Counted from the first letter of the stretch, positions 28,217 to 54,792 are shown. The stretch: 64,000 nt of DNA from Candidatus Nanopelagicales bacterium (GCA_017857175.1 JAFMDS010000001.1:55088-119087); one strand, 5' to 3'. Notes: a model not told the origin generated them from the letters alone. Program-made: numbers and translations.

Positions 28217-28225
28217 TTGAGGGTC

Positions 28226-29407: not shown

Positions 29408-29488
29408 GGGGGAAGGTTAGCAAGTTTACATCTGGAATCCAAAGATTGGATCCAATTTGAATTATGAGGACGGACTATTGTTCCTTCG

Positions 29489-30406: not shown

Positions 30407-30429
30407 TTCACCGCCAAACTTTCGCGGAA

Positions 30430-32471: not shown

Positions 32472-32480
32472 TGCTATGCG

Positions 32481-33893
32481 TCAGAGGATTTCAAGGGCAC
32501 TGGTCAGCACTGAACGCAGTTTCTGCTCGATTTCATCAAACTCTGGCTGACCGATTATGAGCGGTGGCGCCAATTGAATGACAGGGTCGCCGCGGTCATC
32601 GGCACGGCAATAAAGACCGCTGTCGAATAGAGCTTTGGACAGGAATCCACGCAGGAGTCTTTCGGCTTCCTCGCCGCTAAAGGTCTCTTTGGTTTTCTTG
32701 TCTTTGACCAGTTCGATTCCATAGAAGTAGCCGGCGCCGCGTACATCACCCACAATGGGAAGGTCAGTTAGTTTCTCAAGGGTGCGACGGAAGTTTCCTT
32801 CATTGTTTTGGACGTTTTCATTGAGGCCTTCGCGCTCGAAAATGTCCAGGTTTGCCATAGCGACGGCGGCTGAAACAGGATGCCCGCCCCACGTGTAACC
32901 ATGGAGAAATGAGGTTGTGCCGTTTTTGAATGGCTCAAAGAGTCGATCACTTGCGATCATCGCGCCCAAGGGGGAGTATCCGGATGTCATTCCTTTGGCG
33001 CAGGTAATAATGTCTGGGGTTATGCCAAAACGGTTAACCGCAAAGTAATCGCCGATCCGACCAAAAGCGGTAATGGTTTCGTCAGCGACCATGAGGACGT
33101 CATATTCGTCGCAGATTTCGCGCACTCTTTCCAGATAACCGGGGGGAGGCGGAAAGCACCCACCAGAGTTTTGCACTGGTTCGACGAATACGGCGGCAAC
33201 GCTGTCAGGGCCTTCGAACTCGATTGCCTCAGCGATTCTATTGGCTGCCCAGAGTCCAAAAGCTTTTTCATCGCCCTGAAATTCCTCGGGAGCACGGTAA
33301 TAGTTCGTGTTAGGAACCTTTACGCCACCGGGAACGAGTGGTTCAAATGGAATCTTGGCATCAGGGATGCCCGTAATGCTCAACGCGCCCTGTGGGGTTC
33401 CGTGATAAGCAACCGCCCGGCTTATTACTTTGTGCTTAGTGCCTTTGCCCGTCAGCTTGAAAAATTGCTTGGCCAGTTTCCAAGCGGTTTCAACGGCTTC
33501 ACCGCCACCGGTGGTGAAGAAGACGCGGTTAAGGTCTCCGGGTGCCATGTGCGCCAGGCGCTCGGCAAGAAGAATGGCCTGGGGGTGTGCGTAAGACCAG
33601 ATGGGGAAAAACGCAAGTTCCTTCGCTTGCTTGGCCGCAGCATCAGCTAATTCATGCCGCCCATGACCGGCTTGCACGGTAAAAAGTCCGGAGAGCCCAT
33701 CAAAATATTTGTTACCTTGATCATCCCAAACGTAGGCACCCTCGCCTTTGGTGATGATGGGCACGTGATGGCCTTCAAAGTATGTTGAATGGCGCGTGAA
33801 GTGCATCCATAGATGGTCACGAGCCTTGTCAGCAAGGGCATCGGATCCGGATTCTGTTACGTATTGCGGAGTGGTTGTCATTTGGTTCCCCAT
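32481..33893 (-). CDS. class-III (omega) aminotransferase, putrescine/beta-alanine:pyruvate type
   Basis: 470 aa. FFTTGGGEAVETAWK, VADETITAFGRIG, PLP lysine in CAKGMTSGY. Confidence 0.88.
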   Translation of the reverse strand: MGNQMTTTPQYVTESGSDALADKARDHLWMHFTRHSTYFEGHHVPIITKGEGAYVWDDQGNKYFDGLSGLFTVQAGHGRHELADAAAKQAKELAFFPIWSYAHPQAILLAERLAHMAPGDLNRVFFTTGGGEAVETAWKLAKQFFKLTGKGTKHKVISRAVAYHGTPQGALSITGIPDAKIPFEPLVPGGVKVPNTNYYRAPEEFQGDEKAFGLWAANRIAEAIEFEGPDSVAAVFVEPVQNSGGCFPPPPGYLERVREICDEYDVLMVADETITAFGRIGDYFAVNRFGITPDIITCAKGMTSGYSPLGAMIASDRLFEPFKNGTTSFLHGYTWGGHPVSAAVAMANLDIFEREGLNENVQNNEGNFRRTLEKLTDLPIVGDVRGAGYFYGIELVKDKKTKETFSGEEAERLLRGFLSKALFDSGLYCRADDRGDPVIQLAPPLIIGQPEFDEIEQKLRSVLTSALEIL

Positions 33894-34348
33894 GTGTAGG
33901 TTTGTTTTCGGAGTTTGAGATAGACGAAAGTTTCTGTCGAGGCGACCCCTGGAATAGATCTCACTTGAGTGTTGGTCAGGTGCAGAAGCTGTTCATCGTC
34001 AATGGTTACGCATTCGGCCAAAATGTCGTATTTACCTGCAACCACGACGAGATAATCGATTTCAGGGAGTTTCTCTAATTCTTGGGCTACCGCCTCCACA
34101 TCGCCGTGAACTGTTATTGCGATCATTGCTGACCGGTTAAATCCCACCTGGGCAGGATCGGTGACCGCCACAATTTGCATGACACCTGTGTCGTACATTT
34201 TTTGAACACGTTGGCGCACCGCTGCTTCAGAGAGCCCCACAGCTTTACCGATGGTTGCGTAGGGCCGACGGCCATCCTGTTGCAGCTGTTCGATGATGGC
34301 TTTTGAGGCATCGTCAAGCTGCGGAGCGTTGCGGGGACGTGGGGCCAT
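33878..34348 (-). CDS. Lrp/AsnC-family transcriptional regulator
   Basis: 156 aa. HTH YATIGKAVGLSEAAVRQRV plus a C-terminal RAM/AsnC ligand domain. 16-nt overlap with the aminotransferase start. Confidence 0.9.
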   Translation of the reverse strand: MAPRPRNAPQLDDASKAIIEQLQQDGRRPYATIGKAVGLSEAAVRQRVQKMYDTGVMQIVAVTDPAQVGFNRSAMIAITVHGDVEAVAQELEKLPEIDYLVVVAGKYDILAECVTIDDEQLLHLTNTQVRSIPGVASTETFVYLKLRKQTYTWGTK

Positions 34349-34505
34349 ATATACATAATGACCTGATAAATCGCTTAAAGCAAGTGAATCCGCAATAAAT
34401 CATGGTTTTAACCACGAAAAGTTAAGTATTTTATGCAAAAGGATACCGAAAGCGTGAAACCGAAGGTAGGCTTTGGCTACGCAATTCGTGACTCTTGGAG
34501 GAACA

Positions 34506-35948
34506 ATGACTAGAACTTTACAAAACTTTGTTGGCGGAAAATTCGTTGAGACCCGAGAGGGCCAGTCCAGCGAATTGGTGAACCCAACCACGGGCGAGGT
34601 TTTTGCGTCAGCTCCCGTCTCAGGCGAAAACGACATTGACGCGGCCTATCAGATTGCTGCCACCGCATTCGAATCATGGAAAAACACCACTCCATCAGAG
34701 CGCCAGCAGGCATTGCTCAAGATTGCTCAAACTTTTGAGGATCATGCTGAAGAGCTTGTGGCTGTCGAAAGTGAGAACACCGGTAAGCCAATTCAGGTCA
34801 CCATGGATGAGGAAATTCCGCCCATGATCGATCAGATTCGGTTTTTTGCCGGAGCGGCGCGAGTGCTCGAAGGACGCGCTGCGGGTGAGTACATGACCGG
34901 GTTTACGTCAATGATTCGCCGCGAGCCAATCGGGGTTATTGGCCAGGTAACGCCCTGGAACTATCCCATGATGATGGCTGTCTGGAAGTACATCCCGGCC
35001 ATTGCTGCTGGAAATACCGTGGTGCTCAAGCCCAGCGATACAACTCCGGCCTCAACTCTGAAAATGGCCCAATTGATCGCTGACTCAGGTGCTCTACCTC
35101 CTGGTGTTTTCAATGTCGTTTGTGGTGACCGGAATACAGGTAAAGCACTCGTCGAACACAAGACGCCTCAAATGGTGTCCATTACTGGCTCGGTCCGCGC
35201 GGGTATTCAGGTAGCCCAGTCGGCAGCTCTGGACGTGAAGCGCGTTCATTTGGAACTGGGGGGTAAAGCTCCTGTAGTGGTTTTTGATGATGCGGATATT
35301 GCTGCTGCTGCGGAATGGCTTGCTGTCGCTGGCTTTTTCAATGCGGGTCAGGATTGCACCGCTGCAACTCGCATGCTGGTTGCCCCTGCAATCTATGACG
35401 ACTTCGTCGCGGCCATGGCCGAACAAGCGGCTGGTACGTCCACCACTTTTGTCGATGGTCCCACGGGTGATGGACTAGTTCCTCCCATGAATAACGTGAA
35501 TCAAATGAATCAGGTACTCGGCTTTCTCGATCGAGCCCCGAAGCATGCCCAAATTGTTGCAGGTGGTGCCCGACAAGGCGATAAAGGTTTCTACATTTCA
35601 CCAACAGTTGTCGCGGGCTTAAAGCAAGAAGATGAAATGATTCAGAACGAAATTTTTGGGCCAGTTATAACTATCCAGAAATTCGACGATGAAGCCCAAG
35701 CCTTGCAGTATGCAAACGGGGTGAATTATGGGTTGGCGTCATCAGTATGGACAAAGGACTTTGGTCGCGCCATGCGCATGGCAAAGGCTCTCGACTTTGG
35801 TTGTGTCTGGATCAACACGCACATTCCATTGGTCGCTGAAATGCCGCACGGTGGATTCAAACATTCAGGCTATGGCAAGGACTTGTCCATGTATGGTTTT
35901 GAGGACTACACCCGAATCAAGCATGTCATGGCAAATATTGATTCATAG
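34506..35948 (+). CDS. NAD(P)-dependent aminoaldehyde dehydrogenase (gamma-aminobutyraldehyde dehydrogenase-like)
   Basis: VTPWNYPMMMAVWK, VLKPSDTTP, ELGGKAP, catalytic Cys GQDCTAATR. ATG 34506 follows GGAGG. Divergent from the Lrp gene. Confidence 0.88.
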   Translation: MTRTLQNFVGGKFVETREGQSSELVNPTTGEVFASAPVSGENDIDAAYQIAATAFESWKNTTPSERQQALLKIAQTFEDHAEELVAVESENTGKPIQVTMDEEIPPMIDQIRFFAGAARVLEGRAAGEYMTGFTSMIRREPIGVIGQVTPWNYPMMMAVWKYIPAIAAGNTVVLKPSDTTPASTLKMAQLIADSGALPPGVFNVVCGDRNTGKALVEHKTPQMVSITGSVRAGIQVAQSAALDVKRVHLELGGKAPVVVFDDADIAAAAEWLAVAGFFNAGQDCTAATRMLVAPAIYDDFVAAMAEQAAGTSTTFVDGPTGDGLVPPMNNVNQMNQVLGFLDRAPKHAQIVAGGARQGDKGFYISPTVVAGLKQEDEMIQNEIFGPVITIQKFDDEAQALQYANGVNYGLASSVWTKDFGRAMRMAKALDFGCVWINTHIPLVAEMPHGGFKHSGYGKDLSMYGFEDYTRIKHVMANIDS

Positions 35949-36018: not shown

Positions 36019-37236
36019 CTAGCTGCCACCCTCATTGAGTGTGACCGTTAGTGGTGCGAATCCATCACCGGTGACATTGAGCCCCTCAGCCTCGAGTGCA
36101 GCGTCGGCTGCCTCCGCGTACTGATTTGTATAGGCCTCAGCGTCTGGCGCGCTTGAGATGATCGCCACACCTTCAAGGTTCTTGGTGTTTGTTGCCACGG
36201 CAACCGTCTGATCCCAGAGCGCAGGATCGGTGACGCCAACACCTGCGGGTGATGGCCACACCAGCTTGTTTACTTCGTTCATCATCCACAACTGGTGGCT
36301 TGCGCCAAGCATGGATCCATTGGCCGTGATGATGTCAGCACATTCCTGTGCGTTATCGCGGCAGTAAATCCAGCCCTTGAGAGATGCGGTGACAAAGCGC
36401 TGTGTCTGATCTTGGTAAGCAGAGTCAGACAAACGCTCCTGTGATGCCCAGATTGCGTCTTGGTACATGGCCACACCAAAATCATTCCAGTTCAATACAT
36501 TGAAATCGGCTGGCTGGTAAAGCTCACCGGTGTCGGGGTTGACTGCTTCAAGTACCATTGCGTACTCGTTGTAGGTCATGGCCTGTGCTGCATCAATCTC
36601 ACGGTTGAGCAGTGCCTGCATGTCAAATTGCTGTTGCACCATTTCCATATCGCCCGTTGGGGTCAAACCAGCGGCATCAATTGCGGCGAGGAGTTCATAT
36701 TCATTGCCGAATCCCCAGTTGCCGACCTTCTTGCCAGCTAGGTCTGCTGGAGTGCTGATACCTGAATCAGCCCACGAAACCTGAAGGGTTCCGGAGCGCT
36801 GGTATACCTGAGCAACATTGGTGATCATCGCGCCCTGTTCGCGCGATGACAGTGCCTTGGGAACCCACGCAATTGCGTAGTCGGCTCCACCTTGTGCAAG
36901 AACTGTCTGAGGAACGATGTCGAGGCCACCTTCGAGGAGTGTGACGTCGAGACATTGCTCTTCATAGAAGCCCTTGTCTTTGGCCGCGTAGTAGCCGCCG
37001 AATTGGGCCTGCACGAACCACTGCAGTTGCAGACTCACGGGTGTGAGTTCCGTGCACTCGCCTGTTCCTGCAGCGTCTGTTGCTGTTTCTTCTGCCGCAC
37101 TTTCCTCTGTGGTTGCCGTGGCATCAGCCGCAGTGTCAGTGGTGTCTGAACTGCTGCTGCACGCTGACAGAGCAAGCGCAACGACAGTTGCAACGCCGGC
37201 TATTTTGGCGATGCGACTATGTGCTTTTGCGCGCAT
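36019..37236 (-). CDS. ABC transporter substrate-binding lipoprotein, NMT1/THI5-like (NitT/TauT family)
   Basis: 405 aa. Lipobox ALALSAC, Ser/Thr/Ala/Glu-rich linker, then a periplasmic-binding fold. Last gene of the 8-gene operon. Confidence 0.8.
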   Translation of the reverse strand: MRAKAHSRIAKIAGVATVVALALSACSSSSDTTDTAADATATTEESAAEETATDAAGTGECTELTPVSLQLQWFVQAQFGGYYAAKDKGFYEEQCLDVTLLEGGLDIVPQTVLAQGGADYAIAWVPKALSSREQGAMITNVAQVYQRSGTLQVSWADSGISTPADLAGKKVGNWGFGNEYELLAAIDAAGLTPTGDMEMVQQQFDMQALLNREIDAAQAMTYNEYAMVLEAVNPDTGELYQPADFNVLNWNDFGVAMYQDAIWASQERLSDSAYQDQTQRFVTASLKGWIYCRDNAQECADIITANGSMLGASHQLWMMNEVNKLVWPSPAGVGVTDPALWDQTVAVATNTKNLEGVAIISSAPDAEAYTNQYAEAADAALEAEGLNVTGDGFAPLTVTLNEGGS

Positions 37237-37255
37237 TGTTCCTCCTTGTTATGTG

Positions 37256-38056
37256 TCAGGTCGACCGGGTTCGACCTGTCCAGGGTGTTGTCCACTTTTC
37301 AACAGCCACTACCACGAGGTAGAAGATCAGGCCGGTGATGATGGATGCCACGACGTATGCCCACGCTCGACCATATGCCGTGTTAGCTGCCGCACTTGCG
37401 ATGCGAGAGCCAAGTCCTTCTTGGGGGCCGCCAAAATACTCAGCGACCAATGCAGCAATGACCGCCAATGGCGCAGCCACTTTGAGTCCGGTGAAGAAAA
37501 ATGGAATTGCATTCGGAATACGTAGCACCTTGAGTGTGGTTCTCGGGTGCGCATTCATTGAGCGCATAAGTTCGAGTTGAACAGGCTTAACCTGAAGCAA
37601 ACCGCGCGTCACGTTCACGAACATGGGGAACAGAACGATGATCATGGTGACGAGAACCCGCGGGGTGCGGCTGGTGATGTTGAACATGTTGTTCAAAATA
37701 GGTGTCAAAGCAATGATTGGCACAGCCGCGAGGCCTGCAGCGAGCGGTGTCACCAAATGGTTGACGACGATGAAGCGTGATGCGAGTAGCGCCATGACCA
37801 ACCCAAGAACTGTTCCAAGTACAAGTCCAAGGAATGCTGTTGTCCCCGTGTAAAACGCTGCTGCCCACATGAGGGATAAGTCTGTGAAAAAATTAGTCAC
37901 GATCAGACTAGGCGCAGGGAGCAAATACGGCTGGATATCTCTGGCAACTACAAATATTTGCCAAGCAGCCAAGAAGAGGACTGCAATTAAAATAGGGGGC
38001 CAAATTCCGCTGAACCGGCCTGTCCTGCGTGATTGCGCAGCTGTTTGTGTAGACAT
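37256..38056 (-). CDS. ABC transporter permease (NitT/TauT family)
   Basis: 266 aa, 6 TM helices, binding-protein-dependent transport inner-membrane component pattern. Confidence 0.85.
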   Translation of the reverse strand: MSTQTAAQSRRTGRFSGIWPPILIAVLFLAAWQIFVVARDIQPYLLPAPSLIVTNFFTDLSLMWAAAFYTGTTAFLGLVLGTVLGLVMALLASRFIVVNHLVTPLAAGLAAVPIIALTPILNNMFNITSRTPRVLVTMIIVLFPMFVNVTRGLLQVKPVQLELMRSMNAHPRTTLKVLRIPNAIPFFFTGLKVAAPLAVIAALVAEYFGGPQEGLGSRIASAAANTAYGRAWAYVVASIITGLIFYLVVVAVEKWTTPWTGRTRST

Positions 38057-38874
38057 TAGAGTTCTTCAATCCGTGGCGGACTCGCTGAGGCGGAGCGCCC
38101 GCGCAGGGCTTCACGCACGGCAGTGACTCCAGCGTAAAAAGTATCTGTTTCGCGGGTGTCTTCATTGCGCTCACCGAGTTCGATGGGGACCGTATGTGTA
38201 ATGCGGCCGGGCCGTGGTGACATCACGATAACTCGGTCTGAGAGATACACGGCTTCAGGGATTGAGTGTGTGACAAAAATAATTGTCTTCCCCGTCTCCT
38301 GACAAATTCGGAGAAGTTCGTTTTGCATGCGCTCACGAGTCATTTCATCGAGTGCACCGAATGGTTCATCCATGAGAAGGAGTGGGGGATCAACGGCAAG
38401 TGACCGTGCAATGGCTACACGCTGTTGCATTCCACCGGAAAGCTCCCAAGGTCGGTGTTCGGCAAAATCGCTCAATTGCACAAGTTCTAGGAGTTCCAAT
38501 GCACGCTCACGCCGTTCCTTCTTGCCAAGTCCCTGCAGTTCAAGTGGCAACTCCACATTGCGACGCACCGTACGCCAATCAAAAAGGGCCGCCTGCTGGA
38601 ATGCGATTCCATACAGTTGCTTCTCGCGAGCGACAGGTGCCGTTTCACCAGCGATGAATACTTCACCACGCGTTGCACCCGTCAGATCACCGATAACACG
38701 GAGCAGGGTGCTCTTTCCACAGCCGGAGGGTCCAATAAGTGAGATGAATTCTCCGGGCTTAACGCTCAGATTGATATCTGACAGCGCGGTAACCTCGTTA
38801 TTGGAGCCTTCATTGAAAATCTTCCAGAGGCCTTGGACGTCCACGGCCTGATGTGATGTCTGAACACTGCTCAT
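38056..38874 (-). CDS. ABC transporter ATP-binding protein (NitT/TauT family)
   Basis: GPSGCGKSTLL, LSGGMQQRVAIARSL, LLMDEPFGALD. Confidence 0.93.
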   Translation of the reverse strand: MSSVQTSHQAVDVQGLWKIFNEGSNNEVTALSDINLSVKPGEFISLIGPSGCGKSTLLRVIGDLTGATRGEVFIAGETAPVAREKQLYGIAFQQAALFDWRTVRRNVELPLELQGLGKKERRERALELLELVQLSDFAEHRPWELSGGMQQRVAIARSLAVDPPLLLMDEPFGALDEMTRERMQNELLRICQETGKTIIFVTHSIPEAVYLSDRVIVMSPRPGRITHTVPIELGERNEDTRETDTFYAGVTAVREALRGRSASASPPRIEEL

Positions 38875-39767
38875 GCTTGTGACTCCTTGGGCAGATTGCG
38901 GGTCAGGTACAGGTCGAGAGCTGAAACTAGGGCAGCGGCTGCCAGCCCCAAAGCGATAGCTCCGAAGACTGCAACATAGACCTTTGCAGGTTGCGATGTT
39001 GTTTCTCGCGCATATTCAATGAGTAAACGACCCACGCCACCTTTAACGCCGGTCGAAATCTCCGCGACGACGGTGCCAACAACGGCCGCTGCGGCAGAAA
39101 CTTTGAGAGCCGGCACTAGATAGGGCACCGATGATGGGAAGCGAAGTTTCCATAGCATTTGGTTAGGGCGAGCGGCATATGAGCGCATAAGTTCTAGCGA
39201 TGTCGCACTGGGCGCTTGTAATCCACGCAAGGCTCCAACAGACAGAGGGAAGAACGCGAGGTATGCGGCGATGAACATAACGGAATACGTTGTGGTCCAC
39301 TCGATAGGTCCGAATGAAATCCGATTTCCAAGCCCAACGATGAGTGGTGCGAGGGCAATGAGGGGAACCGTCTGCGAGGCAATGACAAATGGCAGCAGTC
39401 CACGTTCAAAAAACGCGAACCGCTGCATGATGACCGCAAGAACAATTCCAAACGTGACTCCAATGGTAAATCCACCGAGAGCAATTTTGAGAGATGTCAA
39501 GGTCGCCGAAACGACAGCCTGGAGAACCGTTGTATCGGAACCACGAACCACCGGATTGCTAAATGCGTCCACCATGGTCCAAACATGCGGCATCGATGTA
39601 TCGGAAGTGTTGATCGGTAACTCGATGAAAGAACCCAGAAATTTAACGGCCTCCCACATGAGAACCACGAGGACCACACCAGCGAGTGCCCACAGAATGG
39701 AGATCACTCCACGCTGCACCCGCGTGCGCGTGGCACCGCGTTGTTTACCGCTAACAGGCTCGCTCAC
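38871..39767 (-). CDS. ABC transporter permease (NitT/TauT family), second subunit
   Basis: 298 aa, multi-TM. 4-nt overlap with the ATPase gene. Confidence 0.85.
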   Translation of the reverse strand: MSEPVSGKQRGATRTRVQRGVISILWALAGVVLVVLMWEAVKFLGSFIELPINTSDTSMPHVWTMVDAFSNPVVRGSDTTVLQAVVSATLTSLKIALGGFTIGVTFGIVLAVIMQRFAFFERGLLPFVIASQTVPLIALAPLIVGLGNRISFGPIEWTTTYSVMFIAAYLAFFPLSVGALRGLQAPSATSLELMRSYAARPNQMLWKLRFPSSVPYLVPALKVSAAAAVVGTVVAEISTGVKGGVGRLLIEYARETTSQPAKVYVAVFGAIALGLAAAALVSALDLYLTRNLPKESQA

Positions 39768-39770
39768 GAA

Positions 39771-40790
39771 TTACTCTTTCGCTAGCACTACGTCTGAGAT
39801 TGCCGGAATAATTTTCTCGCCGTACTGCGCGAGAGTGTGATCCTTGTCGTCGTGCTGCAAATAGAGCGCGAACTGATCCACACCCAATGCTTTGAGTTCT
39901 TCTAAACGGCGAATATGTTCTTCGGGAGGCCCAATGATGCAGAACCTGTCAATGATTTCGTCGGGGACAAAGTCTGTGTGAGTGTTGCCCGATTGACCAT
40001 GTTGGTTGTAGTCATATCCTTGGCGGTTCTTGATGTAATCGGTTAAAGCCTGCGGCACTGCACCACCATTGTCCCCGTAGCGCTCGACAATGTCTGCCAC
40101 ATGGTTTCCGACCATGCCACCGAACCAACGCAATTGATCCCGTGCGTGGGCGTGGTCCTCGGTGACGTATGCCGGAGCCGCAACGCATATGTAGATTGAT
40201 TCAGGATCCCTGCCTGCCGCTGCGGCTGCATCCTTGACCGCCTTAATTGTCCATTCAGCTATTGAAGGGTCAGCAAGCTGCAAAATGAATCCGTCGCCCA
40301 CCTCACCCGTGAGTGCTAGAACCTTGGGGCCATAGGCGGCAACCATGACATCGGTTCGACTCTCGCCGGCCCAAGGAAGTCGGATGTTGTTGCCCTTGTA
40401 CTCAACCGACTCGCCATTAACCAAACCTTTGAGCTCGAGCACGGACTGCCGCAATTCGCCGACGGTGACAGGTTTGCCGTTGGTGACCCTGACAGCTGAG
40501 TCTCCGCGTCCAATTCCAATCACTGTTCGGTTTCCGTACATCTCATTGAGTGTTGCAAAAACCGACGCGGTCACGGTGATGTCTCGTGTTGCGGGATTGG
40601 TCACCATGGGACCGATCTTGATTTTGCGGGTTTCATCGAGGATCTTGCTGTAAATCACGTAGGGCTCTTCCCACAAAATATGTGAGTCAAATGTCCACAC
40701 GTAACTAAAGCCAAAGGTCTCTGCGCGTCGAGCAAGGTCGACTACCCGTGCTGCTGGTGGTGTGCATTGAAGTACTACGCCGATATCCAT
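39771..40790 (-). CDS. luciferase-like (LLM) flavin/deazaflavin-dependent oxidoreductase, Mer-like subfamily
   Basis: 339 aa TIM-barrel LLM pattern: FGFSYVWTFDSH, GPMVTNPATRD, IGIGRGDS, AAYGPKVLALTGEVGDGFILQ. Overall resemblance to methylene-H4MPT reductase-type F420 enzymes, judged by eye. Confidence 0.75.
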   Translation of the reverse strand: MDIGVVLQCTPPAARVVDLARRAETFGFSYVWTFDSHILWEEPYVIYSKILDETRKIKIGPMVTNPATRDITVTASVFATLNEMYGNRTVIGIGRGDSAVRVTNGKPVTVGELRQSVLELKGLVNGESVEYKGNNIRLPWAGESRTDVMVAAYGPKVLALTGEVGDGFILQLADPSIAEWTIKAVKDAAAAAGRDPESIYICVAAPAYVTEDHAHARDQLRWFGGMVGNHVADIVERYGDNGGAVPQALTDYIKNRQGYDYNQHGQSGNTHTDFVPDEIIDRFCIIGPPEEHIRRLEELKALGVDQFALYLQHDDKDHTLAQYGEKIIPAISDVVLAKE

Positions 40791-40833
40791 CGTGATCCTC
40801 CTATTGATTCAGGGTCGTGAACTATTCGAGTTT

Positions 40834-42321
40834 TTAACGAGTGAGTGGGAAGCCGAGATCCACCGATGATGTTGATGGGTCAGGCCAACGGGACGTAACC
40901 GTTTTGGTGCGGGTGTAGAACTCGAGGCCTGCTGGTCCATACATATTGATGTCGCCGAACAGCGAGGCCTTCCAGCCGCCAAAGCTGTAGTAGCCAACAG
41001 GAACGGGGATGGGAACGTTGATTCCCACCATGCCAACTTGGATGTCAAACTGGAATTGACGCGCGGCTCCACCGTCACGGGTGAAGATCGCTGTGCCATT
41101 ACCGTATTGATGCTTGTTGATTAGGTCCACAGCGTCTTCATAGGTATCAACGCGAGTGATGCTCAGCACTGGTCCAAAGATCTCTTCGTCATAGACCTTC
41201 ATCCCAGGTTTGACATTGTCAATGAGTGACGGAGCAAGAAAGAAACCTTCAGCGGGAAGATCGTTCACACGACCGTCCACCACGAGTGTTGCACCTTCTG
41301 CTGCAGCACCCTCGAGATACGAGGCCACCTTGTCTCGATGTTCACGAGTGATAAGCGGACCCATTTCAGCAGTGGGGTCCGTGCCGGGGCCAGTGATCAA
41401 CTTGGGTAGGCGTTCCTGGATTGCTTCGATTAATTTGTCGCCGATTCCGCCCACGGCCACGACAACGGAGATAGCCATGCAGCGCTCACCGGCGGAACCA
41501 AAACCAGCACTGACAGCAGCGTCAGCAGCCATATTGATATCGGCATCGGGCAGAACCACCATGTGGTTTTTAGCTCCACCAAGTGCTTGAACGCGCTTAC
41601 CGTTGGCAGTTCCCGTTGAGTAGATGTAGCGCGCGATGGGAGTTGAGCCGACAAAGCTGATGGCAGCAATTGCGGGGTGTTCAAGCAGGCGATCAACAGC
41701 AACCTTGTCCCCTTGAAGAACGGTGAAGACGCCATCGGGTAGGCCGGCCTTTTTCAACAGCTCGGCCATGTAGAGGGAAACGGAGGGATCCTTTTCACTG
41801 GGCTTGAGCACAAAGCAGTTGCCTGTTGCGATGGCATTTGCAAACATCCACATGGGAACCATTGCTGGGAAGTTAAATGGAGTAATGCCTGCCACGACGC
41901 CGAGTGGTTGGCGGAGGGAATAAACGTCGATCCCGGATGACACCTGCTCGCTGTATCCACCTTTGAGCAACGTGGGGATACTGCACGCAAATTCGATGTT
42001 CTCAATTCCTCGAGCAAGTTCTCCGGCAGCATCGCTGGGCACTTTTCCGTGTTCGATGGATACGAGTTCAGCGATGTAGTCCCTGTTTTCTACAACCAAT
42101 TCACGAAACCGAAACATGATCTCGGTGCGCTTAGAAATTGACATGGAGCGCCAAGTGACATAAGCCCGTGCGGCTGACTCGATTGCTGCGTCAACTTCGG
42201 AGACGCTGGCCAGACCCACCTGGGCTTGTTGTTCACCCGTAGCAGGATTAAACACGGGGGCAAAAGAGCCCGAGGTAGATGGCGTTAGTTTTCCGTCGAT
42301 CCAATGGTCAATCGTCTTCAC
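40834..42321 (-). CDS. mmsA: CoA-acylating methylmalonate/malonate-semialdehyde dehydrogenase
   Basis: 495 aa. ITPFNFPAMVPMWMF, FVLKPSEKDP, catalytic Cys GERCMA, C-terminal FYTRTKTVTSRW typical of MmsA. Confidence 0.9.
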   Translation of the reverse strand: MKTIDHWIDGKLTPSTSGSFAPVFNPATGEQQAQVGLASVSEVDAAIESAARAYVTWRSMSISKRTEIMFRFRELVVENRDYIAELVSIEHGKVPSDAAGELARGIENIEFACSIPTLLKGGYSEQVSSGIDVYSLRQPLGVVAGITPFNFPAMVPMWMFANAIATGNCFVLKPSEKDPSVSLYMAELLKKAGLPDGVFTVLQGDKVAVDRLLEHPAIAAISFVGSTPIARYIYSTGTANGKRVQALGGAKNHMVVLPDADINMAADAAVSAGFGSAGERCMAISVVVAVGGIGDKLIEAIQERLPKLITGPGTDPTAEMGPLITREHRDKVASYLEGAAAEGATLVVDGRVNDLPAEGFFLAPSLIDNVKPGMKVYDEEIFGPVLSITRVDTYEDAVDLINKHQYGNGTAIFTRDGGAARQFQFDIQVGMVGINVPIPVPVGYYSFGGWKASLFGDINMYGPAGLEFYTRTKTVTSRWPDPSTSSVDLGFPLTR

Positions 42322-42375
42322 AGTATTAGCTCCATAGTTGATTGTTGTGATATTGATTTGGTTCCGATTGCGCTG

Positions 42376-43794
42376 TTAGGTCAAGTATTGCGAAAGTCCA
42401 CGCTTGAGGAACTTCCCGTGCCCCTTAGCGCCGTGGTATTCGTTGTTCTCGACAACGACCTTGCCGCGTGAAATCACCGTGTCAACATGTCCATCGATGA
42501 CGGTACCTTCCCAAGCGGAATGGTCCATATTCATGTGGTGGGTCTTGTTCAGCCCGATTTCTGTGCGGCCAGCTGGGTTGTAGATGACGACATCGGCATC
42601 GGATCCAGGAGCGAGAGCGCCCTTTTGTGGATAAAGCCCGAACATGCGGGCGGGGGTTGTTGAACACAATTCCACCCAGCGCTCCAAGCTGATTTGTCCA
42701 TCGACCACTCCCTGATAGATCAGATCCATGCGGTGTTCGACTGAACCAATGCCATTGGGGATTTTTGAGAAATCTCCTACTCCAAGTTCTTTTTGCTCCT
42801 TGAAGCAGAAAGGACAATGGTCAGTGCTGATGATTGAGAGGTCATTTGTGCGCAGGTAGCGCCAAAGTTCTTGTTGGTGTCCCTCTTCTTTGGATCGCAG
42901 TGGTGTCGAGCAGACCCACTTTGCACCTTCAAAGCCTGGTTGCGAAAGGTGATCTTCGAGCGAGAGGTAGAGGTACTGGGGGCACGTCTCCCCGAATACA
43001 TTCCAGCCTTCGTCTTTAGCGCCCTGCAGAACATTGACCGCTTGTTTCGCGGACATATGAACGATGTATAGGGGCGCGCCAGTCATCCGAGCCAACATGA
43101 TCGCCCTGTTAGTTGCCTCAGCTTCTGTTTCCCAAGGACGGGTGAGGGAGTGGTACTTAGGGTCCGTTTTGCCCTCGGCCAAGGCTTGGGCAACCAGAAC
43201 ATCGATAGCTATGCCATTCTCGGCATGCATCATGATCATGGACCCGTTGTTGACGGCCGTCTGCATGGCTCGAAGGATTTGACCGTCGTCACTGTAGAAA
43301 ACACCTGGGTAGGCCATAAACAGTTTGAAGCTGGTGATGCCTTCATTGACGAGTTCGTCCATCGCTTTCAAAGAGTCATCATCGACTCCGCCAATTATTT
43401 GGTGAAAGGAGTAATCGATATGACAGTTTCCCGCCGCCTTGCCATGCCAGGTGGCGAGTCCATCTTGGACGCGCTCACCATATTTCTGAACAGCGAAGTC
43501 GATGATGGTGGTGGTACCGCCCCACGCCGCGGCGCGAGTACCAGTTTCGAACGTGTCTGATGCGAATGTGCCACCAAATGGGAGCTCCATGTGAGTGTGC
43601 GAGTCGATGCCACCGGGAATCACATACTTATTTGTGGCATCGATAACGCGGTCCACGGAGTGTTCAATCTCAGAACCGAGTGTTGTGTCGCCAGGAGCAA
43701 TCACAGCCGCAATTGTTTCCCCATCAATCAGGACATTGGCCAGTGATGTTCCCAGCGGTGTAACCACTGATCCGTTCTTGATCAAAATCTTCAT
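42376..43794 (-). CDS. dihydropyrimidinase / D-hydantoinase
   Basis: 472 aa cyclic amidohydrolase: GGIDSHTHM, carboxylated-Lys context SFKLFMAY, MMHAENG, HMS, STDHCPF. Confidence 0.92.
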   Translation of the reverse strand: MKILIKNGSVVTPLGTSLANVLIDGETIAAVIAPGDTTLGSEIEHSVDRVIDATNKYVIPGGIDSHTHMELPFGGTFASDTFETGTRAAAWGGTTTIIDFAVQKYGERVQDGLATWHGKAAGNCHIDYSFHQIIGGVDDDSLKAMDELVNEGITSFKLFMAYPGVFYSDDGQILRAMQTAVNNGSMIMMHAENGIAIDVLVAQALAEGKTDPKYHSLTRPWETEAEATNRAIMLARMTGAPLYIVHMSAKQAVNVLQGAKDEGWNVFGETCPQYLYLSLEDHLSQPGFEGAKWVCSTPLRSKEEGHQQELWRYLRTNDLSIISTDHCPFCFKEQKELGVGDFSKIPNGIGSVEHRMDLIYQGVVDGQISLERWVELCSTTPARMFGLYPQKGALAPGSDADVVIYNPAGRTEIGLNKTHHMNMDHSAWEGTVIDGHVDTVISRGKVVVENNEYHGAKGHGKFLKRGLSQYLT

Positions 43795-43809
43795 GGTGTC
43801 TGGACCTTT

Positions 43810-44658
43810 CTATGGGCGTACGAGATCGTCGTAGGCATCGGGGCGGCGGTCACGGTAGAACTGCCAGCGGGTGCGAACCGTCGTAATGAGCTCGAGATCC
43901 AAGTCGCGCACAATGAGTTCAGGCTTATAGGCGTCACCTTTTTCGCCGACATAACTACCCTCTGGATCAATGAAATAGGACTGACCATAGAAGTCGTCAT
44001 CGCCAAGATCTTCGATTCCCACCCGGTTAATCGCCCCAACGTAATACTCGTTGGCAACGGCGGCGGCAGGTTGCTCAATTGACCACAGATATTGAGAGAG
44101 GCCACGTGAAGTTGCCGACGGATTGAACACGATTTGAGCCCCGTTCAGGCCCAATGCGCGCCAGCCTTCGGGGAAATGTCGGTCATAACAGATGTACACG
44201 CCAATTTTTCCGACCGCCGTATCAAAAACTGGGTAACCCCCGTTGCCTGGACGGAAGTAGAACTTCTCCCAAAAACCCTTGACATGTGGAATGTGCTGCT
44301 TGCGGTACTTGCCCAGATAGCTGCCATCAGCATCGACAACGGCGGCCGTGTTGTAGAGGAACCCAGGACCTGCATCCTCGTACATGGGGAGGACCATGAC
44401 CATTTCGAGTTCGCGGGCAAGTTTCTGGAATCTTTCAGTGGTGGGTCCTGGAATTGATTCAGCGTATTCGTAGAACTGAGCGTCCTGAACCTGGCAAAAG
44501 TACGGGCCATAGAAAAGTTCTTGGAAGCAAATGACTTTAACGCCCTGAGCCGCGGCTTCGCGTGCGTAGTCCTCGTGCTTCTGAATCATTGATTCTTTAT
44601 CTCCGGTCCAGTCTGTCTGGACGAGAGCCGCTCTAACTGTTGTCATCTGATCCTCCAT
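43810..44658 (-). CDS. nitrilase-superfamily N-carbamoyl amidohydrolase (beta-ureidopropionase-like)
   Basis: 282 aa. E-K-C triad contexts CFQELF, YRKQHIP, VYICYDRHFPE. First gene of the operon. Confidence 0.85.
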   Translation of the reverse strand: MEDQMTTVRAALVQTDWTGDKESMIQKHEDYAREAAAQGVKVICFQELFYGPYFCQVQDAQFYEYAESIPGPTTERFQKLARELEMVMVLPMYEDAGPGFLYNTAAVVDADGSYLGKYRKQHIPHVKGFWEKFYFRPGNGGYPVFDTAVGKIGVYICYDRHFPEGWRALGLNGAQIVFNPSATSRGLSQYLWSIEQPAAAVANEYYVGAINRVGIEDLGDDDFYGQSYFIDPEGSYVGEKGDAYKPELIVRDLDLELITTVRTRWQFYRDRRPDAYDDLVRP

Positions 44659-44703
44659 TGCCGCCCTGAATTGGCAGTTTTATTTTTACAAACCTATTGA
44701 TGA

Positions 44704-44761
44704 AATTGTGTTATTCAATAGACTAGACGAATCCAATTGTGTTACACAGCGTTTTAACACA
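44704..44761. promoter_or_regulatory. repeat operator candidate in the divergent promoter region (beta-ureidopropionase operon / MocR gene)
   Basis: AATTGTGTTA at 44704-44713 and again at 44735-44744 (31 nt apart). Inverted partner TAACACA at 44755-44761, giving GTGTTA-n10-TAACAC. The spacer is AT-rich. Confidence 0.5.
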
Positions 44762-44820
44762 TTCGTTACATGTCGCGGGACTGGAAGCCAGTCTCAGCGC
44801 CCTACGAGGGGGTGAGATCC

Positions 44821-46269
44821 ATGGCAATCGATTCTGTTTCACCGATGGTCGCGGCAAGGCACCAAATGGAGGATCCCCAGGAATTCGTTGCCTCGCTGCT
44901 CCACACCTCTGAAGACCGAACCGCCAAAGGCATTGCGGCCTCGGTGCACAGGTTGATCACGGCAGGAATTTTGCGCCCAGGTGACAGGCTGCCAACAGTC
45001 CGGGAAATCAGTGCCCAACTCGGGGTGAGTCCGGCAACCGTCAGTGAGGCCTGGCAGTCACTGGCCCTGGTCGGCGCCCTCACCACGAGAGGTCGCGCGG
45101 GTACCTTTGTTGCCCTCGCGACGCCCGGAACAGGACCAACTCGGTTCATGGGGCTGGGCGGTCCTCAGAGTGCGGTCGGCCTCGACCTTTCACGGGGCAC
45201 GCCTGACCCGGCACTTCTGCCATCGCTCCTCTCAGCCGTTGAAAGAGTCACCCGTGGCCAGAACGAATGGTCGAGCAGTTATTTCGATGAACCAGTGTTG
45301 GGCGCTCTGGAGGATGAATTGCGCCGAACCTGGCCATTTGCTCCTGAGCGGATCACCGTGGTCGATGGGGCCCTTGACGCGCTCTCTCGAATCATTGATC
45401 ACGTTGTTTCATTTGGTGACCGAATAGTTGTTGAATCCCCCGGATTTCCTCCGTTATTTGATCTGTTGGAGCGGGCTGGTGCACAAATGTTGGCAGTGTC
45501 CATGGACGAACAAGGAATCGTGCCTGAAGAGTTGGCCCGGGCATTGGAGTTTGATCCTGCGGCCGTTTTCATTCAACCGCGGGCCCAAAATCCCACGGGG
45601 ACAAGCATGACAACCCTTAGATCGTCCGAGTTAGCGCAAATTTTAAGTAGCTCAGCCTGTTGGATCATTGAAGATGATCACAGCGGAGACATCGCACAGG
45701 CGGACGATGTGAGTATCGGACGATACATCCCAGAGCGTTGCATTCACATTCGAAGTTACTCCAAGTCCCATGGACCTGACCTACGCATAGCTGCTCTGGG
45801 TGGCCCATCTGAAGTCATTGAAGCAATCATCAATCGAAGGATGCTCGGCCCAGGTTGGACCAGCAGGCTCCTCCAGGGAACCCTTGTCGAGTTGCTGACA
45901 CATGCAGAACCCATCGCGGCTGTGGCACACGCACGTGAGGCTTATGCCTTGCGCAGCACGCACCTGCGCGAATCGCTCATGGATCGAGGGATCGCCTGCA
46001 GTCCCGGTGATGGAATCAATGTCTTGGTCTCGGTCAATGACGAGCGCAGTGCCCTTGTAACGCTCGCAGCAGCAGGCATCAGGGTCGCACCGGGTGAACC
46101 ATTTCACCTTTCCAAAAACACAAGTTTGACGGGAAATGCACCTCGATCAGCATCGGTCCGGGTGACATCGGGAATGCTCAGTGATCATCCGGGAGAAATC
46201 GAATCCACGGCACAAAGTATCGCTATCGCGAGCCTGGGGGTTGAGGGCTTCGATGCGCATCGAAGATAA
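44821..46269 (+). CDS. MocR/GabR-type regulator (GntR wHTH fused to an aminotransferase-like PLP domain)
   Basis: N-terminus RLPTVREISAQLGVSPATVSEAWQSL (GntR HTH). C-terminal fold-type-I domain with SYSKSHGPDLRIAAL. ATG 44821 follows GGGGGTGA. The ORF-track start is 44770. Confidence 0.85.
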   Translation: MAIDSVSPMVAARHQMEDPQEFVASLLHTSEDRTAKGIAASVHRLITAGILRPGDRLPTVREISAQLGVSPATVSEAWQSLALVGALTTRGRAGTFVALATPGTGPTRFMGLGGPQSAVGLDLSRGTPDPALLPSLLSAVERVTRGQNEWSSSYFDEPVLGALEDELRRTWPFAPERITVVDGALDALSRIIDHVVSFGDRIVVESPGFPPLFDLLERAGAQMLAVSMDEQGIVPEELARALEFDPAAVFIQPRAQNPTGTSMTTLRSSELAQILSSSACWIIEDDHSGDIAQADDVSIGRYIPERCIHIRSYSKSHGPDLRIAALGGPSEVIEAIINRRMLGPGWTSRLLQGTLVELLTHAEPIAAVAHAREAYALRSTHLRESLMDRGIACSPGDGINVLVSVNDERSALVTLAAAGIRVAPGEPFHLSKNTSLTGNAPRSASVRVTSGMLSDHPGEIESTAQSIAIASLGVEGFDAHRR

Positions 46270-46327
46270 ACAGGATTCCGATATTCCGCCACGTAGCAAT
46301 CTAAGTCAAGCTAGTGCCATTTGCCTT

Positions 46328-46365
46328 GTGGGTCCACAACCTGCAATTATCGGTTGGTGGCCCAC
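46328..46365 (+). promoter_or_regulatory. hairpin that would sequester the ribosome-binding region of the downstream ALDH gene
   Basis: gtgggtccac (46328-46337) pairs with gtggcccac (46357-46365), about 9 bp with one bulge. The 3' arm ends at the ATG (46366) and contains the GGTGG SD-like element. Confidence 0.3.
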
Positions 46366-47820: not shown

Positions 47821-47979
47821 AATTAGGACAGGGAAAGGTCATTTCGGGCGATAATACGGCTAGATACACGGGATGAAACACTAGGATAAGTTTTGCTCGA
47901 AGATTTGATAGAAGGTCTTCGAGGCAATGAATTTGGTGGGGAGTGACCTCGCCGCAACGTTATAAGGGAGAGGAATTTC

Positions 47980-49197: not shown

Positions 49198-49202
49198 ACC
49201 CA

Positions 49203-49242
49203 GTGTGGGGGTCGATTAAATTCGATCCCCACACTTCTTTTT
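49203..49242 (+). terminator. rho-independent terminator/attenuator between potD and potA
   Basis: gtgtgggggtcga-ttaaat-tcgatccccacac: a 13-bp stem (one G-U pair) followed by TTCTTTTT. It starts 6 nt after the potD stop. Confidence 0.8.
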
Positions 49243-49262
49243 AAAAACAATAATTCCCCGCA

Positions 49263-50429: not shown

Positions 50430-50431
50430 CC

Positions 50432-53730: not shown

Positions 53731-53764
53731 GGAGTTTTTAGGCCAAGGGAGGTAGGGTCACAGC

Positions 53765-54790: not shown

Positions 54791-54792
54791 TC

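Follow-up and report, generated by a model that had tools for sequence, protein, structure and literature searches.

The operon described here raises the question of how reductive pyrimidine breakdown could begin where a recognised dihydropyrimidine dehydrogenase is missing. It occupies positions 36019-44658 of the window, that is the whole 64-kb stretch of DNA that was analysed, and an ORF and family check found all eight minus-strand ORFs reported in the initial annotation to be present and correctly named. These ORFs, the divergent regulatory region and gene, and an aminotransferase gene considered below are as follows:

43810..44658, minus strand, CN-hydrolase (PF00795), first gene of the operon
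42376..43794, minus strand, dihydropyrimidinase (PydB/HydA; TIGR02033 equivalog)
40834..42321, minus strand, MmsA, CoA-acylating (methyl)malonate-semialdehyde dehydrogenase (TIGR01722)
39771..40790, minus strand, luciferase-like (LLM) oxidoreductase (Bac_luciferase, TIGR03842)
38871..39767, minus strand, ABC importer permease 1 (BPD_transp_1, PF00528)
38056..38874, minus strand, ABC importer ATPase (PF00005)
37256..38056, minus strand, ABC importer permease 2 (BPD_transp_1, PF00528)
36019..37236, minus strand, NMT1/ThiY-type substrate-binding lipoprotein (PF09084)
44659..44769, divergent control region of 111 nt, candidate MocR operator
44770..46269, plus strand, divergent MocR-like regulator (GntR-type HTH plus aminotransferase-like domain)
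32481..33893, minus strand, omega-aminotransferase (NF005102), candidate transamination enzyme

In the direction of transcription, the operon genes are separated by gaps of 15, 54, 43 and 3 nt, overlaps of 4 and 1 nt and a final gap of 19 nt. The operon is located inside a polyamine-catabolic island. Genes for all steps of the pathway after the first are present, and the LLM protein is the only enzyme left without an assigned step. Though it had been claimed to be the only redox enzyme of the operon, this is incorrect, as MmsA is a redox enzyme too.

The assignment of the operon to reductive pyrimidine catabolism was borne out, with the dihydropyrimidinase, CN-hydrolase and MmsA passing or approaching the relevant models. 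The dihydropyrimidinase scores 545 bits against TIGR02033 (cutoff 393) and MmsA 708 bits against TIGR01722 (cutoff 448). The CN-hydrolase (228 bits against PF00795) has as its best solved relatives the beta-ureidopropionase of Drosophila (2vhh, 2.4e-53), an N-carbamoylputrescine amidase (5h8i, 2.3e-52) and human beta-ureidopropionase (6ftq), but its 246 bits against the aguB model TIGR03381 do not reach the cutoff of 410, and D-carbamoylases are far weaker matches (95 bits versus 185). On sequence grounds it is predicted to be an N-carbamoyl-beta-alanine/N-carbamoyl-beta-aminoisobutyrate amidohydrolase (beta-ureidopropionase). Among the window's proteins, the omega-aminotransferase (806 bits against NF005102) is the one most similar (37 % identity, 262 bits) to the AptA-type aminotransferase encoded beside the F420/pyrimidine cluster of Leisingera. 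It is a candidate, no more, for transaminating beta-alanine or beta-aminoisobutyrate; its gene belongs to a different unit, which is Lrp-linked and also contains amine-oxidase genes.

The reported lack of a PydA/PreT-PreA-type enzyme in the 64 kb holds. None was found among the annotated ORFs of the window, which include nearly all non-overlapping ORFs of at least 150 aa, and tblastn searches of the window with Escherichia coli PreT and PreA returned zero matches at E≤1e-3. Nor was a PreT/PreA homologue found by tblastn in 82 related loci. The same PreA query recovers homologues of 38-44 % identity across phyla, and the search was therefore sensitive enough. These results cover 64 kb of the host genome, and a canonical dehydrogenase may be encoded outside this stretch.

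Profile-HMM classification using the NCBIfam profiles identified the LLM protein as a full-score member of TIGR03842 (571 bits, cutoff 295), an F420-class LLM model named F420_CPS_4043, from which no difference was noted. In contrast, it scores only 137 bits against the Mer model (cutoff 349). TIGR03842 is of the type 'hypoth_equivalog', and RefSeq names the homologues by this model only, with the GO term 'biological_process'. The present analysis adds a specific functional prediction for this hypothetical equivalog. The AlphaFold model (pLDDT 85) has its lowest confidence in the probable active-site loops, residues 36-40 and approximately 230-280. When it was compared to the PDB using Foldseek, the 17 best matches were all F420-dependent LLMs, the top one being Mer with F420 (8qpl, TM 0.77). 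Mer structures are the nearest solved (8qpl, 1f07 and 1z69; TM 0.75-0.77, 25-28 % identity), and Mer, which shares VTNP and GIGxGD motifs with the LLM protein, is likewise an F420H2-dependent reductase, the activity predicted here. However, Glu6 of Mer (mutated in 8qq8) is aligned with Val6 in the LLM protein, which thus lacks this residue and carries, at about 222-275, a conserved segment specific to its family (WFxxMVGNHVADIVERYG...GYDY..HGQ), and its context is pyrimidine genes of aerobic bacteria rather than C1 metabolism.

RutA, the FMN-dependent pyrimidine monooxygenase of the Rut pathway, is also an LLM-superfamily enzyme acting at the first catabolic step on uracil or thymine. It cleaves the ring in an O2- and FMNH2-dependent reaction and has RutB-G as partners, whereas the LLM protein of the window belongs to the F420 clade and its partner dihydropyrimidinase requires a reduced ring. 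RutA is absent from the 25 best NCBIfam matches of the LLM protein, and the annotated ORFs of the window include no RutB-G genes.

Conservation of the gene neighbourhood was examined in 80 actinobacterial species from several lineages, including Acidimicrobiia and Solirubrobacteraceae. In 61 of the 65 informative loci, the LLM gene is immediately preceded by a same-strand dihydropyrimidinase gene, and an adjacent one is missing in the other four. The CN-hydrolase gene is upstream of this pair in 53/56 related loci, MmsA is encoded between dihydropyrimidinase and LLM in 33/56, and the NMT1-type ABC importer genes are downstream of the LLM gene in 42/58. Variants include CN-hydrolase-dihydropyrimidinase-LLM-FbiC-Fno in Streptomyces (locus L077) and dihydropyrimidinase-LLM-M20-aminotransferase in Williamsia (L070).

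Homologues of the LLM protein were also found in ten alphaproteobacterial organisms, and in all ten the gene is beside F420-biosynthesis genes. In nine, where the protein shares 44-46 % identity, it is the final gene of a cofG-cofH-cofD-cofC-cofE-fno operon and in Aquimixticola it is divergent from a cofD-cofC-fbiC-LLM2-cofE operon. In five of the ten it adjoins genes for a dihydropyrimidinase, an M20 carbamoylase, an AptA beta-alanine-type aminotransferase, an NMT1 importer and/or a RutR-like TetR regulator. A dihydropyrimidinase gene is absent within 10 kb in Pukyongiella, Hoeflea and Shimia (3/10, cof-fno-LLM operons) and in Paracoccus and Aquimixticola. One alphaproteobacterial locus, L093, has the order cofGHDCE-fno-LLM-TetR-M20-dihydropyrimidinase-ATPase-permease-permease-NMT1, and the canonical cluster of Qingshengfaniella has the order preT-like, preA, TetR, M20, hydA, ATPase, permease, permease, substrate-binding protein. 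The seven genes common to both are 49, 67, 66, 71, 66, 64 and 82 % identical. Hence, cofGHDCE-fno-LLM occupies the preT-preA position of an otherwise orthologous cluster.

The Qingshengfaniella cluster also bears on the importer, as it too includes an ATPase, two permeases and an NMT1 protein, and this supports the earlier suggestion that the NMT1 transporter imports a pyrimidine. Compared to their counterparts there, the binding protein of the window shares 40 % identity (205 bits), the ATPase 49 %, permease 2 35 % and the dihydropyrimidinase 39 % (to hydA). The binding protein (126 bits against PF09084) has an N-terminal lipobox (...LALSAC) and, after it, a low-complexity linker, its relatives among solved structures are 4nmy and ThiY (3ix1), which binds pyrimidines, and it is predicted to bind uracil/thymine or their dihydro forms. 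On this reading, the host, a freshwater actinobacterium, has a complete operon for uracil/thymine import and breakdown.

We consider it probable that this is a self-contained operon for the import and reductive catabolism of uracil/thymine, in which the LLM protein replaces PydA/PreT-PreA using F420H2. The proposal that the LLM protein is a non-orthologous uracil/thymine reductase is well supported by comparative genomics, namely gene linkage, cof-operon neighbours and the displacement of preT-preA. Hydride transfer to C=N, C=O and activated C=C bonds is the obligate chemistry of F420H2-dependent LLM enzymes. The pyrimidine would be brought in by the NMT1-type ABC system, and the TIGR03842 LLM enzyme would reduce C5=C6 with F420H2, producing 5,6-dihydrouracil or 5,6-dihydrothymine. 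In the geometry inferred for this step, C6 would receive the hydride of F420H2, and C5 a proton donated by a conserved acid in the active site. Dihydropyrimidinase would then open the ring, the CN-hydrolase would release beta-alanine or beta-aminoisobutyrate with NH3 and CO2, an omega-aminotransferase whose gene is probably outside the operon would form malonate or methylmalonate semialdehyde, and MmsA would turn this into acetyl-CoA or propionyl-CoA. Genes for Fno, which draws on NADPH, or for Fgd would lie elsewhere in the genome and serve to regenerate F420H2.

In taking the C5=C6 reduction step, the LLM protein would therefore replace the FAD/FMN/[4Fe-4S] enzymes PydA and PreT-PreA (EC 1.3.1.1, 1.3.1.2), though unrelated to them. 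The predicted conversion of uracil/thymine into the 5,6-dihydro form and the pathway position are the same, as is the cluster position when L093 is compared to Qingshengfaniella, and the net electron donor of LLM plus Fno would again be NADPH. However, PydA/PreT-PreA comprise a DHODH-like FMN domain, a GltD-like FAD/NAD subunit and four [4Fe-4S] clusters, whereas the LLM protein is a TIM barrel with a predicted deazaflavin hydride carrier as cofactor, with no sequence or fold relationship to them.

Alternatively, the LLM protein could act downstream as an F420-dependent malonate-/methylmalonate-semialdehyde reductase, detoxifying the aldehyde in the role of PydE, RutE or YdfG, with a dihydropyrimidine dehydrogenase encoded elsewhere. 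Its structural neighbours do include the alcohol/carbonyl oxidoreductases Adf (1rhc), FGD and fHMAD, and the proteobacterial clusters often have no aldehyde dehydrogenase beside LLM. We regard this as very unlikely, as MmsA already handles the semialdehyde in the window operon and in 33/56 actinobacterial loci, the cof-fno-LLM block of L093 is exactly at the preT-preA position with the remaining module orthologous, and no PreT/PreA is near any of the 82 loci. Dihydropyrimidinases/hydantoinases and carbamoylases are promiscuous enzymes, and this, with a transporter ligand that is only predicted, a CN-hydrolase scoring almost equally against N-carbamoylputrescine amidase and the polyamine-catabolic surroundings, would suit an operon that degrades a related cyclic amide (a substituted uracil, an orotate-like or barbiturate-like compound, or an unsaturated hydantoin or imide), which the transporter would import and the LLM protein reduce. 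Such a substrate is unlikely given that the dihydropyrimidinase passes an equivalog model, beta-alanine/beta-aminoisobutyrate as products fit MmsA and the AptA-type aminotransferases, RutR-like regulators lie next to the proteobacterial LLM genes, the same module is attached to annotated preT-preA in the canonical cluster, and D-carbamoylases match the CN-hydrolase so much less well. That the LLM gene is a passenger, coincidentally adjacent to pyrimidine genes, is scarcely credible when the adjacency is kept in 61/65 loci across the 80 species and recurs in a second phylum.

The same reaction might use another cofactor in this host (FMN, or scavenged FO/F420), if the lineage is unable to make F420. 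One paper reports that streamlined 'Ca. Nanopelagicales' cannot (PMC7771536), no cof/fbi/fno genes were found in the window or in 10 kb past its 3′ end, and NCBIfam recognises FMN-reverted LLM lineages (TIGR03885). However, because its GC content is 53 %, the window may fall outside that streamlined low-GC family. The actinobacterial LLM clade and the cof-operon-fused proteobacterial clade have approximately 100 invariant positions in common, the F420-class model is matched with 571 bits, and other actinobacterial carriers (L077 and L080) encode FbiC/Fno or CofD next to the cluster. Hence, a different cofactor appears improbable and the LLM protein most likely uses F420.

The exchange of an iron-sulfur first enzyme for an LLM enzyme would extend to at least 80 actinobacterial species and to marine alphaproteobacteria. 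The searchable literature yielded no earlier account of it, and it has apparently not yet been described. [quoted passage not shown] In the latter, an LLM/F420 enzyme is likewise suggested to stand in for a dihydropyrimidine dehydrogenase-like one (YgfK/UacX) and would precede an amidohydrolase in the reductive breakdown of an N-heterocycle, but the pathway (uric acid/xanthine) and the phylum differ.

The divergent MocR-like regulator probably controls the operon. Its best NCBIfam matches are all MocR-like (PtsJ, 239 bits, EhuR, PdxR and GabR), each under its cutoff, and a MocR homologue is divergent from the CN-hydrolase gene in 25/80 related loci. A sigma-70 consensus scan of the control region gave nothing above chance. 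This region contains a direct repeat, ATTGTGTTA, at 44705-44713 and 44736-44744, 31 nt apart, with an inverted copy, TAACACA, at 44755-44761, and these repeats are a candidate MocR operator. Loci of Acidimicrobiia, Actinoplanes and Microbacteriaceae have similar boxes, ATTGT...ACAAT...ATTGT, between their MocR and CN-hydrolase genes.

All eight minus-strand ORFs of the operon (36019–44658) are present exactly as described in the initial annotation, in the order CN-hydrolase, dihydropyrimidinase (DHPase), MmsA, luciferase-like protein (LLM; 39771–40790, minus strand, 339 residues), permease, ATPase, permease and NMT1-type binding protein. Read from 44658 towards 36019, the genes are separated by 15, 54, 43 and 3 nt, then overlap by 4 and 1 nt, and the last gap is 19 nt. 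A consensus scan revealed no internal terminator-like site above chance within the operon, and no promoter or terminator site between 35800 and 45000 exceeded the shuffled expectation. This arrangement fits a single operon.

In profile searches, the DHPase (PydB) scored 545 bits against TIGR02033 (cutoff 393) and MmsA, the CoA-acylating methylmalonate-semialdehyde dehydrogenase, scored 708 bits against TIGR01722 (cutoff 448). The CN-hydrolase passed no NCBIfam model. Its best solved relative is the Drosophila beta-ureidopropionase (2vhh, 2.4e-53), but an N-carbamoylputrescine amidase (5h8i) scores near this, the human beta-ureidopropionase is also close, and D-carbamoylases are far weaker. Context, namely linkage to the DHPase in 53 of 56 actinobacterial loci, favours assignment of the CN-hydrolase as PydC. 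The polyamine genes around the operon had prompted a reading as N-carbamoylputrescine amidase, which was ruled out as the main one by the fixed pairing with DHPase and an aguB score below the cutoff. A D-hydantoinase/D-carbamoylase pathway was also rejected, because D-carbamoylases are much weaker matches and MmsA suits beta-amino acid products.

Upstream of the operon, the following features were found:

44659–44769, divergent region of 111 nt, containing ATTGTGTTA twice (44705–44713 and 44736–44744, 31 nt apart)
44770–46269, divergent from the operon, gene for a MocR-like regulator, for which the best NCBIfam matches are all MocR-like

The regulator matches PtsJ (239 bits over residues 49–451), EhuR, PdxR, YczR and GabR, all under the cutoffs. 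The divergent region also includes an inverted TAACACA at 44755–44761, and related arrangements of ATTGT/ACAAT boxes recur between the MocR and CN-hydrolase genes at distant actinobacterial loci. We regard the repeats as a candidate operator for the MocR-like regulator. On the model of GabR, its effector would probably be an amine of the pathway bound through PLP.

The LLM is a member of TIGR03842. The profile-HMM classification proposed in the initial annotation gave 570.9 bits (cutoff 295.45), with residues 2–331 of 339 covered. This family is named 'LLM class F420-dependent oxidoreductase' and is of the NCBIfam type hypothetical equivalog. The fold is a luciferase-like (beta/alpha)8 barrel (PF00296, 209 bits), LLM barrels are the top Foldseek matches, and the AlphaFold model has a pLDDT of 85 and a pTM of 0.87, with low confidence in the likely lid loops. 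The nearest solved sequences and folds all belong to F420 enzymes, the closest being Mer with F420 (8qpl, TM 0.77, 28 % identity), followed in the structural ranking by Adf, FGD2/fHMAD and FGD1, with FMN-dependent luciferases and monooxygenases lower.

The LLM is nevertheless not Mer. It scores 136.6 against TIGR03555 (cutoff 348.7) and 143.5 against NF002619 (cutoff 276), and in a HMMER alignment to 8qpm its Val6 stands opposite Mer Glu6, which is the mutated position in PDB 8qq8. This position is hydrophobic or variable in the LLM family, and a segment at approximately residues 222–275 is strongly conserved and particular to the family. A RutA-type enzyme was also rejected, as RutA lies outside the 25 best NCBIfam matches of the LLM, and no Rut genes (rutB–G) were annotated among the window ORFs scanned. 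The canonical dihydropyrimidine dehydrogenase (DPD) combines a DHODH-like FMN subunit, which carries 4Fe-4S domains, with a GltD-like FAD/NAD(P) subunit, and the LLM has a different fold. The LLM is not a member of the canonical DPD class, though its function may resemble that of DPD.

For the actinobacterial neighbourhoods, one genome per species was used, giving 80 loci with 67–87 % identity onto which the window proteins were mapped. The carriers are Nanopelagicales, Ilumatobacteraceae and other Acidimicrobiia, Solirubrobacteraceae, Actinoplanes, Dactylosporangium, Streptomyces, Williamsia, Rhodococcus, Microbacterium, Agromyces and others. The co-occurrence of LLM and DHPase that the initial annotation asked about was seen in 61 of the 65 loci with enough flanking sequence, where the DHPase gene lies directly upstream of the LLM gene on the same strand. 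MmsA lies between the two in 33 of 56 loci, the permease-ATPase-permease-NMT1 importer follows the LLM in 42 of 58, and a MocR gene is divergent from the CN-hydrolase gene in 25 loci. Variants include CN-hydrolase-DHPase-LLM-FbiC-…-Fno in Streptomyces (L077), DHPase-LLM-M20 hydrolase-aminotransferase in Williamsia (L070), DHPase-M20-LLM in two Solirubrobacteraceae (L039 and L069) and CN-hydrolase-DHPase-LLM-aminotransferase in Rhodococcus (L082), with pntAB 7 kb away (18240–21024). To judge from gene order, the link between the LLM and pyrimidine genes is retained across the variants. An adjacent DHPase is missing from four of the 65 loci, and a Pfam search of the plus-strand ORFs upstream of the LLM found no alternative hydantoinase in L015, L049, L054 or L056.

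Homologues sharing 44–46 % identity with the LLM were found in Paracoccus alcaliphilus, Leisingera, Pseudovibrio, Cohaesibacter, Hoeflea, Shimia, Pukyongiella, Aquimixticola and uncultured marine lineages. The homologue adjoins cof genes in all ten proteobacterial organisms, and in nine of the ten examined it closes an operon of cofG-cofH-cofD-cofC-cofE-fno; the tenth, Aquimixticola, has it divergent from the operon cofD-cofC-fbiC-LLM2-cofE. Hence, F420 biosynthesis, in nine cases together with the NADPH:F420 oxidoreductase, is packaged with the LLM enzyme. The second Bac_luciferase gene within the Aquimixticola soesokkakensis operon (L092, 3982–9683) could encode an enzyme that reduces F420 in the manner of Fgd, or some other F420 enzyme. 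From the cof-gene neighbourhoods, the FbiC and Fno genes in Streptomyces L077 and the F420 enzymes that are its structural neighbours, F420 is the predicted cofactor of the LLM.

In five of the ten organisms, pyrimidine genes adjoin the cof/LLM block. Leisingera carries pntAB, an AptA-type aminotransferase, an M20 carbamoylase-family hydrolase and hydA in divergent orientation to it, and Pseudovibrio has the same set minus pntAB. In Cohaesibacter, DHPase-ATPase-permease-permease-NMT1 is directly upstream of the block. Two further clusters lie on a single strand, namely DHPase-ATPase-permease-permease-NMT1-cofGHDCE-fno-LLM-aminotransferase in a Tara-abundant lineage, and cofGHDCE-fno-LLM-TetR-M20-DHPase-ATPase-permease-permease-NMT1 in the alphaproteobacterial cluster L093. 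For the TetR protein beside the LLM, much the best NCBIfam match is RutR, the pyrimidine-utilisation regulator (194 bits in Leisingera and 230 bits in Pseudovibrio, under the equivalog cutoff), and the L093 TetR has the same TetR_N/TetR_C_3 domains as these two. The proton-translocating transhydrogenase genes pntAB recur, being beside the cluster in Leisingera (L002, 3245–6271) and in the Rhodococcus locus, and may provide NADPH for Fno. In Cohaesibacter (L084), a formamidase-like FmdA_AmdA gene (11080–12024, minus strand) adjoins the M20 hydrolase gene, immediately downstream of the LLM and on the opposite strand.

The strongest argument for the role of the LLM comes from comparison of L093 with a plasmid-borne cluster of the canonical type in the Rhodobacterales member Qingshengfaniella alkalisoli, annotated as a preT-like oxidoreductase, preA, TetR, a Zn-dependent hydrolase, hydA, an ABC ATPase, two permeases and a binding protein. 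The shared proteins are 49 % (TetR), 67 % (M20), 66 % (DHPase), 71 % (ATPase), 66 % (permease 1), 64 % (permease 2) and 82 % (binding protein) identical, and the position of preT-preA is occupied in L093 by cofGHDCE-fno-LLM. This displacement indicates that the LLM, F420 and an F420 reductase together would do the job of DPD, and the comparison is likewise the strongest argument for placing the NMT1-type importer in pyrimidine catabolism. The window binding protein, ATPase and DHPase share 40, 49 and 39 % identity, respectively, with their Qingshengfaniella counterparts.

The proposal that the NMT1 transporter is a pyrimidine-catabolic importer is thus supported by an orthologous module in a canonical preT-preA/hydA cluster, and orthologous modules are also found in the F420-type clusters L084, L087 and L093. 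The importer consists of an NMT1-fold binding protein (PF09084) and two BPD_transp_1 permeases flanking the ATPase. The binding protein starts with a lipoprotein signal (…LALSAC) and a low-complexity linker, and its nearest solved relatives are 4nmy and the FAMP-binding ThiY (3ix1), with E ~1e-11. Its predicted ligand is uracil, thymine or a dihydro-form.

The absence of a PydA or PreT-PreA type enzyme from the 64 kb, as reported in the initial annotation, was borne out by both approaches used. None was found among the annotated non-overlapping window ORFs of at least 150 aa, and tblastn with the E. coli PreT and PreA queries (E<=1e-3) gave no matches in the window or in 82 LLM loci. This null result is meaningful, because the same PreA query recovers homologues that are 38–44 % identical in Alphaproteobacteria, Burkholderiales, Bacillus and Deinococcus. 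In the reductive pyrimidine cluster, the place of PydA is filled by the LLM. The PreT/PreA absence covers the 64-kb window, and a canonical dehydrogenase elsewhere in the host genome is possible.

Gene content, family membership, fold, conserved gene order and the displacement are direct observations, and the interpretation in the initial annotation finds strong comparative backing in two phyla. We consider it quite probable that the LLM is an F420-type uracil/thymine reductase catalysing the first step of the operon pathway. Uracil or thymine would be imported by the ABC system, and F420H2 bound in the LLM barrel would deliver a hydride to C6 of the pyrimidine, with a proton passing from a conserved acid to C5; candidate donors are the invariant residues Asp35-Ser36-His37, Asp97 and Asn229-His230. 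DHPase and the CN-hydrolase would then yield beta-alanine or beta-aminoisobutyrate, NH3 and CO2. An omega-aminotransferase would produce the semialdehyde, the nearby candidate at 32481–33893 being 37 % identical to the Leisingera AptA-type enzyme, and MmsA would convert this to acetyl-CoA or propionyl-CoA. Regeneration of F420H2 would fall to an Fno or Fgd whose gene lies outside the window.

A DHPase is not within reach in half of the proteobacterial cof-fno-LLM loci. In Pukyongiella (L086), Hoeflea (L090) and Shimia (L091), cofGHDCE-fno-LLM is present without a DHPase within 10 kb; the pyrimidine genes may be located elsewhere, or the substrate range of TIGR03842 may be broader. In Pukyongiella a TRAP transporter gene directly follows the LLM, and in Shimia a xanthine-dehydrogenase-type molybdoenzyme gene set adjoins the operon. 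Other explanations for the LLM are less parsimonious. It could reduce a different cyclic amide, act as an aldehyde reductase further down the pathway or be a passenger gene, the last two readings to be set against the gene order conserved in Actinobacteria and the exchange for preT-preA in L093.

A further alternative is that, in this host, the LLM carries out the uracil/thymine reduction with another flavin. CofG/H/D/C/E and Fno gave no tblastn match in the window, and the 10 kb past its 3′ end hold only housekeeping genes, with none for F420 biosynthesis or F420 reduction. Streamlined 'Ca. Nanopelagicales' have been reported as unable to synthesise F420 (PMC7771536), though the lineage of the window has a GC content of 53 %. 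This alternative is likewise less parsimonious than an F420H2-dependent uracil/thymine reductase.

In an otherwise known pathway, what appears to be new is the predicted first enzyme, which is non-orthologous and would rely on another cofactor. TIGR03842 is probably an unrecognised F420H2-dependent DPD that has repeatedly displaced PreT-PreA/PydA; it would then be the main, perhaps sole, reason that many marine Alphaproteobacteria carry a complete F420 biosynthesis operon and Fno, and reductive pyrimidine catabolism would be a widespread physiological use of F420 among Actinobacteria of water and soil. The open-access papers and bioRxiv preprints searched contain no account of a pyrimidine reductase that depends on F420, and Mascotti 2018 has nothing on the TIGR03842 clade. 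RefSeq gives the LLM homologues only the family name and the GO term 'biological_process'. A 2021 review of F420 noted that no F420-dependent enzyme had been studied from non-actinobacterial bacteria and described the role of F420 in Alphaproteobacteria as 'minor or niche-specific' (PMC8498797). An analogous suggestion, in which a luciferase-family F420 enzyme would stand in for a DPD-like reductase, was made in 2025 for uric-acid clusters in Chloroflexota (PMC12507026).

If correct, the proposed activity would add a fourth type of first step in bacterial pyrimidine breakdown to the NAD(P)H-dependent DPD, the ferredoxin-dependent DPD and RutA, give a function to the 'hypothetical' TIGR03842 family, and provide F420 with its first concrete physiological function in Proteobacteria. 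As a biocatalyst for uracil-type enone reduction, the LLM would be simple and consist of a single subunit. Carriers are abundant in nature, with the window LLM on 31 contigs and a marine homologue, P0299, on at least 79; hence the finding is relevant to the use of nucleobases as a nitrogen source by oligotrophic bacterioplankton. Speculatively, replacement of an enzyme with four Fe-S clusters could be important where iron is limiting.

Homologues that are 87–100 % identical carry the name of an uncultured 'Candidatus Nanopelagicales bacterium', a freshwater actinobacterium. The window has a GC content of ~53 %, and its left third is made up of housekeeping genes (smc, ftsY, amt, glnD, ffh, rimM, trmD, lepB, rnhB, rpsB, tsf, pyrH and frr). 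The pyrimidine operon is enclosed by an amine/polyamine catabolic island (27089–35948 and 46321–57449) that includes a CaiB-type CoA-transferase with an acyl-CoA dehydrogenase, two DAO-type FAD amine oxidases, an Lrp regulator, the omega-aminotransferase, two aminobutyraldehyde dehydrogenase paralogues, PotD/A/B/C, agmatinase, a GABA aminotransferase and a saccharopine-dehydrogenase-like protein, for which the carboxynorspermidine-synthase model scored below the cutoff. Between the omega-aminotransferase and a DAO oxidase lies the gene for a PPOX-like PF12900 (Pyridox_ox_2) protein (31800–32471, minus strand), which matches no F420-PPOX NCBIfam model, and this trio is kept in the close relatives L003, L005, L006 and L012. 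The genes amt, for an ammonium transporter, and glnD, for the PII uridylyltransferase, are located at 5745–9769, 26 kb upstream of the operon, a position that fits a nitrogen-scavenging neighbourhood.
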